Assembly (NCBI RefSeq): GCF_046105845.1
Contig: NZ_CP151004.1
Length of the DNA: 64,000 nucleotides
From: Escherichia coli
GTDB taxonomy: Bacteria > Pseudomonadota > Gammaproteobacteria > Enterobacterales > Enterobacteriaceae
Strand: one strand, 5' to 3'
The notes beneath the pieces were generated by a model, which was not told the DNA's origin, did no database searches, and saw only the letters and a list, made by a program, of their open reading frames with translations. The stretch's first letter is position 1. Each line of letters starts with the position of its first letter. The position numbers and the translations under genes were made by a program. Below, piece after piece: positions 56,857 through 58,535 of the stretch.

Positions 56857-57189
56857 TGCGCTGGTTTGGTTGATTTTTTGCATTTCAGAATTACCGTGCA
56901 TTTTCAAATGTAGAGATTATTTTATCGATATATCATGGGGTTATGTTATTCAGCATCACAGTTCAGGAGGCTCAATAGCGGGGTACTATACCATAACAAC
57001 AGGAAGCGCCTGTCTCATTGCAAAAGAAAATTGAGATCCTCTCAAGGCATGAAGCTCTCACGAAGTGAAGATATAATCTTATTAGATGTTAGCGTTGTGA
57101 AAAGCAATGATAAACAATTCAGCTTCGACGATAAATAAAAAATCACACATAAACCATGCTGATATATCTCGCGGCGAATAGTATTGATA

Positions 57190-57224
57190 GATAAAAAAGA
57201 ACCCAATCATTGTTGAGTTCTTTT
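57190..57224 (-). terminator. Rho-independent terminator after the 318-aa yjbL/yjbM-like ORF
   Basis: Minus-strand hairpin aagaactcaacaatgattgggttctt followed by TTTTTTAT, about 40 nt after the stop. Confidence 0.6.
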
Positions 57225-57261
57225 ATATAATGCCTTCCATACCATCGAAGAACTTCACATA

Positions 57262-58218
57262 TTATTTCTCCGATTTAACCCCGAATAAATCATAAATTAA
57301 TTTAGAAGTATCTGTAAGTATTTTAATCTCTTCCTTTGAGGTTGGGTCAAACGACTTAGCGAAGCTAATTAATTGCGGTGCAGCATCTCGCATTTTGCTT
57401 AAAATATCAGGATCGAGCTTTCCTTCATTCACCAGAATTGACATCTTCTCCAGATAGTCATCAAAATTCATTTCTCCCCCATCTGCCAGACGCTTCATCT
57501 CTCCCAGGTACTTCTTCATATCACGTTGAGATAATTCTTCAAACTGAGCTGTCAGGTAGTTATTATTATATTCATTAATATTCACTCTTCCTGCTAAATC
57601 TGCGTAGGCACTAGAATATGAAAGTGAAATTAACAGCGAAGCGAATAATTTTAAGCTGTTGTCATCATATTCCTGACATGCATTAACAAACGTTAAGAAA
57701 CCAGAACCTATTGCTTGCAAATGTATATTCGCTAAAGGTTCATTATCTTTAGATTCCTCATAAAATAGCTGAACCGTGGAGGGAAGGCCATTCTTAGTTT
57801 CTACGTCAAAAGTACATCGTTCTATGGGCGTCGCATCTTTATTATCCTCGAGATTACATATACTATTAATCGCGAAATGAAAAATAGCCCGGTCAACAAC
57901 TGATGCAATATATTCACGATCGTTTAATTCCTCATCAGTACAATCTCCAATATACTCATTGACACACATTTTGAGATCATTTATTTGCTTAATTAACGTC
58001 ACATTTTTTTCACGTGCAGTCCATAAATTATGAGTGATTCTTTGAATAAACAAATCTATTTTTGCAATAATTATATCCCGATGACGCATCGTTGAATAAT
58101 CAATAGATTTACCATATATACTATTTACTTTACCTTTGATTGCATCTTCATTATCGAATTGATTTGAATTGAGTGTTTTATTAAAGTATCCAGTTGCACC
58201 GGGTATTATCTTCAACAT
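57262..58218 (-). CDS. AT-rich uncharacterised protein (318 aa) at the position of yjbL plus yjbM
   Basis: ORF track 318 aa, single uninterrupted frame; low GC; lies between dusA and zur where K-12 has yjbL and yjbM as I recall. Confidence 0.7.
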
Positions 58219-58535
58219 GATTCATCTACCTTTTTTGTCGTACCGTGTCCTCCTTATAATTCTTTTGCCATCTGGTCACTATCAAAAATCGCTCATAATT
58301 TTCTGAACTACGGGTATGCGATCAACCCCAGTTAAATAAATAGTGAGTTAACTTAAAGCAATTCATTTAAAAATGAATTATTAATTATTATCGTGTAGAT
58401 AATGGTACTACCAGGCAACACAACACCTTACCTACAAAACAGAAAATCAACATTACGGTAACAATAAGGGTTCTCGGTGTTTTTCCTGGAACATGGTAAA
58501 GTAAGGACATTCTTAACCCCACTTTGAGGTGCCCG

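Follow-up and report, generated by a model that had tools for sequence, protein, structure and literature searches.

Among the closest described relatives of the locus considered here are an integration system, a class of silenced intergenic regions and a protein family. [quoted passage not shown] The zur/yjbL intergenic region of Escherichia coli K-12 has been described as a 'promoter island', predicted to be foreign and bound by H-NS in all ChIP studies cited (PMC3661553). In the K-12 genome NC_000913.3, the slot between zur and dusA is annotated with yjbL (b4047, 84 amino acids (aa)) and yjbM (b4048, 235 aa, 'DUF2713 domain-containing'), in agreement with a sequence-only reading of the present DNA. 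In an MG1655 derivative and in BL21(DE3), PGAP labels the copy as a single 'DUF2713 ... frameshifted' pseudogene, and the core claim of a split gene is therefore already known at the database level, where full-length 'DUF2713 family protein' entries are also found. Added here are the mechanism of poly-A slippage, its recurrence and its frequency, the variation of the locus in presence and in deep allele classes, the putatively element-derived dusA 5' end, and the recognition that a truncated copy lies behind both the Pfam and the K-12 annotation as artefacts. Searches of the literature for a function of yjbL/yjbM in E. coli, of DUF2713 or of b4047/b4048 returned nothing. The 'yjbL/yjbM' mentioned in Klebsiella plasmid papers belong to a different gene cluster adjoining blaSHV-12, presumably mis-spelt ygb genes, and YjbM of Bacillus subtilis is an unrelated ppGpp synthetase.

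The window, meaning the whole stretch of 64,000 nucleotides (nt) analysed, carries one unbroken ORF with an ATG start between dusA (55864..56907, minus strand) and zur (58524/58536..59051, plus strand). This ORF, found at 57262..58218 on the minus strand in the ORF listing, encodes 318 aa as the sequence-only reading had stated, and an exact match of the protein is already deposited at NCBI as 'DUF2713 family protein [E. coli]'. The ORF call, the match to PF10897 and the dN/dS values identify it as an intact DUF2713-family ORF, the full-length counterpart of K-12 yjbL and yjbM. The surrounding block is as AT-rich as had been claimed, with a GC content of 0.29-0.37 over about 56850-58500 compared with 0.52-0.57 in dusA and zur. 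The terminator attributed to the ORF was likewise recovered in a consensus scan as a terminator-like hairpin with a T-rich tail, located 38 nt 3' of the stop (57224..57195, minus strand; fold -12.5 kcal/mol, z = -3.17 against shuffles). A scan 5' of the ORF gave a sigma-70-like promoter match (TTGATA-18-AATTAT, 58256..58285, minus strand), which is weak evidence of a promoter, and the count of promoter-like sites in the scan equals the shuffle expectation. Rfam returned a chance-level CRISPR-DR match inside dusA only.

The yjbL and yjbM genes of K-12 are two halves of one gene that is intact in the window strain. By synteny and protein alignment, both are colinear, and in matching order, with the one intact ORF that occupies this locus, YjbL corresponding to the N-terminal part of the 318-aa protein. 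In the DNA alignment, the window reads CACGTGAAAAAAATG where K-12 and BL21 read CACGT-AAAAAAATG and are one base short. In the K-12 haplogroup, intact alleles have HARKKNVFLIEQI encoded by CGT AAA AAA AAT GTG, i.e., with an A8 run, and together with the one-base gap this identifies the K-12 allele as an A8-to-A7 contraction. Falling at codons 79-81 of the K-12-type allele, the contraction throws translation into another frame, a stop three codons further on forms the end of yjbL, and the remainder is the out-of-frame ORF annotated as yjbM. The corresponding frameshift hot spot of the window, placed at 58004..58011 (minus strand) by sequence, alignments, locus classification and probe counts, consists of G+A7 (GAAAAAAA) and is in frame. 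Resetting the tract to A8 in silico converts K-12 to one ORF of 328 aa and BL21 to one of 340 aa, each with only the terminal stop, and repair of five further frameshifted alleles (A7, A9 or G+A6) gave single ORFs of 328-340 aa. The proposal that K-12 carries a split form of a gene intact here was thus borne out by the alignment to the yjbL-yjbM region that had been suggested as a check. The supporting arithmetic failed, as the near equality of 84 + 235 and 318 aa is coincidental: K-12 has an extra 10-aa repeat, and the annotated yjbM ATG lies 11 codons beyond the shift.

It could be argued that K-12 has two real genes here, yjbL and yjbM, in one operon, the window ORF being a fusion that arose later or a chance product of AT-rich DNA. 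NC_000913.3 does annotate two CDSs, and a phylostratigraphy paper gives 'yjbL, yjbM' as an operon (PMC12218254). Yet a single homopolymer base is the whole difference between the two forms, no Shine-Dalgarno-like sequence was seen before either candidate yjbM start when the sequence was read by eye, and all deep allele classes as well as the distant relatives of the protein have a single ORF with conserved motifs crossing the junction. These relatives, retrieved by an exhaustive phmmer search, are few and share 25-52% identity with the query over a stretch of about residues 45-250. The most conserved motif of the family, (I/V)AKLDxFxxxITxxLW..SEKxVxI...LK, passes through the frameshift site, and family-invariant residues flank the junction on one side (K53, D55, W66) and on the other (L98, D109, R110, F113). 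As both distant homologues and invariant residues span the junction, the single ORF is the ancestral state. The boundary of the Pfam model merely copies the truncated K-12 protein, and the chance-ORF variant is contradicted by a dN/dS below 1 with a dS of about 0.77. Hence, the two-gene reading is effectively refuted, and the split-gene reading is followed below.

The sequence-only reading had described the product as lacking any recognisable motif, which proved incorrect, as the protein matches Pfam DUF2713 (PF10897) with an i-Evalue of 2.3e-144 in hmmscan, model positions 1-235 of 235 covering residues 84-318. The boundaries of PHROG 29005 and 28007, like those of Pfam, follow the truncated K-12 fragments; these models have therefore inherited the K-12 truncation and omit about 80 conserved N-terminal residues, including a 15-residue motif, the most conserved at the N-terminus. 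The DUF2713 gene is an accessory gene so far found almost only in E. coli. Close matches of the 318-aa protein were from E. coli in every case, and two scans with N-terminal and core motifs revealed no relative in 100,044 species-representative genomes. No homologue was found in 50,697 phage genomes by tblastn or in catalogued plasmids. Megablast found no genes for the distant paralogues of 400 aa (L008 and L006) in complete E. coli genomes, and in PLSDB they occurred only in one mislabelled chromosome record. In Salmonella bongori, a 294-aa ORF occupies the equivalent slot, and comparison by hhalign (probability 0.1) showed that it is not related to DUF2713.

At least three deep allele classes are found at the locus, with about 52% aa identity and dS of 0.5-0.8 between them. 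Judged by this divergence, the classes long predate the divergence ordinarily seen within E. coli. The flanking dusA and zur genes keep 98-99% identity in every class. Divergence is limited to a hypervariable AT-rich block at about 57060..58330, delimited by per-feature identities and by comparing one divergent locus (L026) with the window in 60-nt segments; within it, identity from class to class falls to 57-75%, whereas the flanks remain at 98-100%. The dN/dS ratio is below 1 in every comparison, ranging from 0.24 to 0.81 within the main allele class and reaching about 0.4 between the main class and class D (dS about 0.77) and 0.44 between classes D and D' (dS 0.49), and these values therefore mark the ORF as a real gene under weak constraint. 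The alleles also vary in an in-frame 30-nt coding tandem repeat, whose site in the window was mapped to 58120..58150 (minus strand) by alignments and TRF. The unit encodes approximately D-A-T-K-D-K-L-D-N-I, and inserted units number none in the window, one in K-12 (+10 aa) and two in BL21 (+20 aa); for BL21, TRF reported a period of 30 and 3.6 copies.

To what extent the gene is intact across E. coli was surveyed in 5,426 complete genomes using probes of 42-43 nt in blastn mode. The exact A7 tract was the commonest state, present in 2,236 genomes (41%), while the exact A8 tract was found in 932, the window-type G+A7 allele in about 652, and the divergent classes D and D' in 139 and about 210, respectively. 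In a further 1,123 genomes (20.7%) the gene is absent and dusA and zur are 155 nt apart, an empty site exemplified by loci L032 and L033. The split state inferred for K-12 was thus recovered, while the implied restriction to K-12 was not, because 41% of the complete genomes carry A7.

Classification of 22 sampled loci by locus state added detail to these counts. Besides K-12 and BL21, five other sampled loci have A7, while L017 has A9, L023 has G+A6, L031 has a second-site slip in a poly-G (G8) run, L014 has a slip at the same position, and L015 is interrupted by IS1; intact ORFs have 318, 320, 330 or 338 aa. An IS1 insertion was also seen in H34. For the rare homopolymer variants A9, G7 and G9, each seen in a single assembly, long-read error is a possible source. 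Three allele clades include A7 alleles, and all three also have A8 members. For example, K-12 shares 98.3% identity with the intact L029 and just 93.5% with BL21, while BL21 shares 97.7% with the intact L016, and L018 (A7), L014 (A8) and L017 (A9) are mutually at least 99.2% identical. Within about 22 nt of the A-run, K-12 and BL21 differ by SNPs, and therefore independent slippage is a more parsimonious explanation than recombinational transfer of the lesion. The A7 lesion is thus frequent and has arisen in several allele clades, and inactivation has also proceeded through A9, a poly-G slip and IS1. No second lesion was seen in six of the seven sampled A7 alleles, which fits recent decay but also retained function. 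The gene of O157:H7 is intact.

The variation of the tract may alternatively be functional, the locus being either phase-variable between A7, A8 and A9 or able to produce full-length protein from A7 through transcriptional or -1 ribosomal slippage on A AAA AAA. This would agree with the three tract lengths seen within alleles at least 99.2% identical (where singletons may be assembly errors), with a second homopolymer that also varies (G8; G7/G8), with the prevalence of A7 and its lack of other lesions, with the position of the tract in a low-confidence loop between helices of the predicted structure (residues 63-70), and with the coding repeat at the N-terminus. Yet classical contingency loci, like efficient slippage by RNA polymerase, usually involve runs longer than 8 nt, the classes D and D' lack an A-run at the hot-spot position, and part of the variants may stem from assembly errors. 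In K-12, the region is moreover bound by H-NS (PMC3661553). As irreversible lesions (IS1, second-site shifts) and full absence of the gene are also common, the pattern resembles recurrent decay more than a regulated switch, and a switch is considered unlikely. In an extended form, it could be speculated that DUF2713 is a conflict or host-interaction gene whose ancient classes are kept under balancing or diversifying selection, toggled by the poly-A tract (in one clade a poly-G tract) and tuned by the coding repeat; this too is improbable. If such a toggle were real, the locus would be a chromosomal contingency locus in a species with few known, and A7 strains like K-12 could yield some full-length protein by slippage. 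Recurrent slipped-strand decay is the reading retained here.

Comparison of empty-site and filled genomes points to the origin of the block. In blastn alignments, homology stops within the 5' coding end of dusA (window 56813) and resumes at 58470, so that the presence/absence block of 56814..58469 places about 1.66 kb where the empty-site genomes (L032, L033) have about 133 nt. In empty-site E. coli, DusA begins with a native short N-terminus, MPAESHTVYPAY leading directly into RFSIAPM..., and this short form is also found in Klebsiella, Cronobacter, Shimwellia blattae, Serratia and Erwinia. The window and K-12 have a long form in which 26 residues precede RFSVAPM..., and the comparison of DusA N-termini suggests that the segment at 56814..56901 (minus strand) is a surrogate, element-derived 5' coding end preceding RFS(V/I)APMLDW. 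The long form resembles those found sporadically in Cronobacter, S. bongori and Shimwellia pseudoproteus; only 89 nt separate the long-form dusA of Cronobacter from a phage integrase and a complete prophage, and the 5' end of this dusA shares 81% DNA identity with that of the window, starting exactly at the start codon. Given this breakpoint, the surrogate N-terminus and the known mechanism of dusA integrases, we infer that 56814..58469 is a decayed remnant of a dusA-integrated element, and the AT-rich block is most likely an integrase-less one. The N-terminal 26 residues of K-12 DusA accordingly appear to derive from the element, which would be relevant to structure-function work on DusA.

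Several other traces of such an element were sought. A tblastn search with the Cronobacter integrase detected no integrase remnant in the block or in the whole window, small ORFs had no NCBIfam match, no att-like direct repeat exceeded chance (the best 21-mer matched at 14/21, the shuffle expectation), and blastn did not find the displaced native dusA 5' end near zur. With integrase, att repeat and displaced end all missing, derivation from an element is claimed here and membership of the element class is not, and the case for an island-remnant origin is carried entirely by the breakpoint and the surrogate N-terminus. DUF2713 itself could have entered the site independently of the dusA-integrated element.

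The function of the protein can be approached through its predicted structure and through its relatives. The AlphaFold2 (AF2) model (pLDDT 76, pTM 0.73) has a disordered N-terminus of about 38 residues, to which the 30-nt repeat region maps, followed by a mostly helical body with a small sheet, and the frameshift site falls in the loop mentioned above. Its agreement with the AFDB models for DUF2713 proteins is poor (TM 0.4-0.5), and the product may tentatively be described as soluble and mostly helical, the disordered N-terminus bearing the repeat. The 318-aa protein had no match in NCBIfam, no PADLOC defence-protein HMM family at E <= 1, and no useful match in the PDB, by sequence or by profile, or in BFVD. 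Foldseek against AFDB50 returned the DUF2713 family itself only, and PHROGs returned only the K-12 fragments. The contigs of distant relatives are IS-flanked or plasmid-like; on one plasmid-like contig the relative (P0147) adjoins a pentapeptide-repeat gene resembling PipB2/EspX, and an E. coli paralogue (P0150) adjoins an AIDA autotransporter and hok/gef. These two neighbourhoods are leads toward a conflict or host-interaction role and not evidence of one.

It could be speculated that DUF2713 is a secreted effector or another host-interaction protein, e.g., a substrate of type III secretion, that is lost where it is not needed. The disordered first 38 or so residues are rich in S, T and N and carry the variable repeat, the P0147 and P0150 neighbourhoods would fit such a role, the O157:H7 copy is intact, and diversifying pressure would be consistent with the deep allele classes. 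Yet the dusA-zur site has no linked secretion-system locus, neither sequence nor structure revealed likeness to known effectors, dN/dS is below 1 throughout, the neighbourhood evidence comes from two short contigs only, and intact copies occur in strains of many sources and hosts, making an effector role rather doubtful. An equally doubtful suggestion is that DUF2713 on its own forms an anti-phage or other conflict module, which mobile elements carry as cargo at an integration hot spot. Such a module might be expected to show the presence/absence polymorphism at a known integration hot spot, the deep allelic lineages between conserved flanks, the AT-rich and H-NS-bound context (PMC3661553), the frequent loss and the relatives on IS-flanked contigs described here. 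Against it, PADLOC gave no match, neither an enzymatic motif nor a recognisable effector domain was found, phage genomes contained no homologues, and the gene is transcriptionally silenced in K-12. With low confidence, the deep, fast-diverging classes and the relatives on mobile elements could still hint at a part in genetic conflict or host interaction in place of a housekeeping role.

Taken together, the locus is very probably explained by a split accessory gene, recurrent poly-A slippage and the decay of silenced cargo on a dusA-element remnant. An element would have integrated into the 5' end of dusA, leaving the surrogate DusA N-terminus and an integrase-less block of about 1.66 kb. The block is H-NS-bound in K-12, and its gene would represent dispensable, silenced cargo. 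Slipped-strand mutation would then have led the gene to decay in many lineages, while the intact copies probably remain under weak purifying selection. In NC_000913.3, yjbL and yjbM still stand as separate uncharacterised genes; a single frameshifted pseudogene should replace them and their "y-ome" entries should be read anew, and functional work on the family should use an intact allele, such as that of the window or of O157:H7, and not that of K-12. With presence/absence, three deep classes and recurrent homopolymer inactivation, the locus offers a compact example of how a silenced island remnant may decay.

Compared with the described systems, the window ORF belongs to the same family and has the same chromosomal position as Pfam DUF2713 and K-12 YjbM plus YjbL, and differs in being uninterrupted, the 235 positions of the Pfam model being bounded by the truncated K-12 fragment. 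Like the dusA-associated integrative elements (Farrugia et al. 2015, PMC4482086), the block has its boundary in the 5' coding end of dusA, just upstream of the RFSxAPMLDW region, and the window shares its surrogate DusA N-terminus with the Cronobacter dusA that abuts an integrase and prophage. Such elements would, in contrast, be expected to have a DAI tyrosine integrase adjacent to the dusA 5' end and a pair of imperfect attL/attR direct repeats of about 21 bp, neither of which was found, and the window retains just about 1.66 kb with a single gene and without the displaced native 5' end. The block is AT-rich and lies in the same intergenic region as the H-NS-silenced 'promoter island' locus of K-12, although the split of the downstream gene and the presence polymorphism of the locus were not remarked on in that work (PMC3661553). 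Finally, the locus resembles homopolymer-frameshift pseudogenes and slipped-strand contingency loci in that one base more or less in a mononucleotide tract turns the ORF off and that several tract lengths occur in near-identical alleles, yet the run here has just 8 nt, and with irreversible lesions and full deletion also frequent, recurrent decay describes the locus better than a regulated switch would.

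At least three deep classes of the DUF2713 gene coexist in E. coli, with ~52% amino acid identity and dS values of 0.5-0.8, and the flanks around them are 98-99% identical. Deep-class alleles lie at 2065-3021 of loci L026 and L027, 6001-6894 of L005 and 1501-2505 of L034, and the proteins of one divergent class, D', occur in 297-aa and 334-aa forms. Length also varies through a coding tandem repeat in the disordered N-terminus, which stays in frame and has a 30-nt unit (~DATKDKLDNI; window ~58120-58150, comparison locus L003 2721-2828). Strains carry zero, one or two inserted units of this repeat, adding 0, 10 or 20 aa and giving DUF2713 proteins of 318-340 aa. 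The corresponding family models, Pfam PF10897 and PHROG 29005 and 28007, have boundaries following the K-12 fragments, with extents of 235 or 246 aa (YjbM) and a 40-aa piece (YjbL), and thus misrepresent the true extent of the DUF2713 domain.

Other lesions are found within the gene. In one allele clade (clade U; L018, L031 and L014), a second homopolymer, G8, encodes ..ADRGGM.. at gene nt ~774, and its length is off by 1 nt in L031 (G7) and in L014, reflecting either a further slippage hot spot or a long-read assembly error. In some genomes, the gene is broken by IS1, as in H34 (NZ_CM177009.1) and at L015 (2912-3609), where the 768-bp insert is placed after gene nt 612.

The dusA-zur slot is gene-free in 1,123 of the 5,426 complete E. 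coli genomes, and we suspect that these empty-site genomes sort by phylogroup, possibly B2. At the two empty-site loci L032 and L033, dusA and zur are separated by 155 nt; at the former, dinF of strain Rb-3 is annotated as frameshifted (4951-6275). Comparing dusA 5' ends (window 56814-56901, L032 3868-3913, L035 10001-10090) revealed that the first 26 residues of K-12-type DusA differ from the native enterobacterial N-terminus and match the surrogate end tied to a dusA-integrated prophage in Cronobacter, while the native short form is present in empty-site E. coli (L032). Within the dusA coding sequence, an Rfam match to CRISPR-DR31 (window 56180-56219, minus strand) is sub-threshold, its 23 bits (E = 0.1) falling short of the gathering score, 35, and is almost certainly due to chance. 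The S. bongori dusA likewise has a surrogate-type 5' end, and the zur-dusA slot of this species (L037 7142-9798), from which an integrase is absent, carries cargo other than the DUF2713 gene of E. coli, namely a TraF_2 protein and a 294-aa ORF that had no match in a Pfam search and was unrelated to DUF2713 when compared with it.

Sequences related to, or partly resembling, DUF2713 were found in other surroundings. In the E. coli draft WCDV01000084.1 (L013), the distant paralogue P0150 has a transposase of the IS3 family, hok/gef and an AIDA autotransporter as neighbors, surroundings that are plasmid- or island-like. The 939-aa protein P0151, matched to query residues 239-282, contains ~8 tandem copies of the motif ..YAARLxQLVKEGKLTPEQAKKLL.., which is similar to a DUF2713 segment; this likeness may reflect a short helical motif common to both, or may be a chance effect of composition. 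Finally, locus L006, where KfrA and part of a group II intron reverse transcriptase are also present, encodes a 397-aa distant DUF2713 relative adjoined by the gene (3842-4777) for a 311-aa pentapeptide-repeat (ADLRH)n protein. This protein shows weak similarity to SopD and resembles effectors of the PipB2/EspX type.
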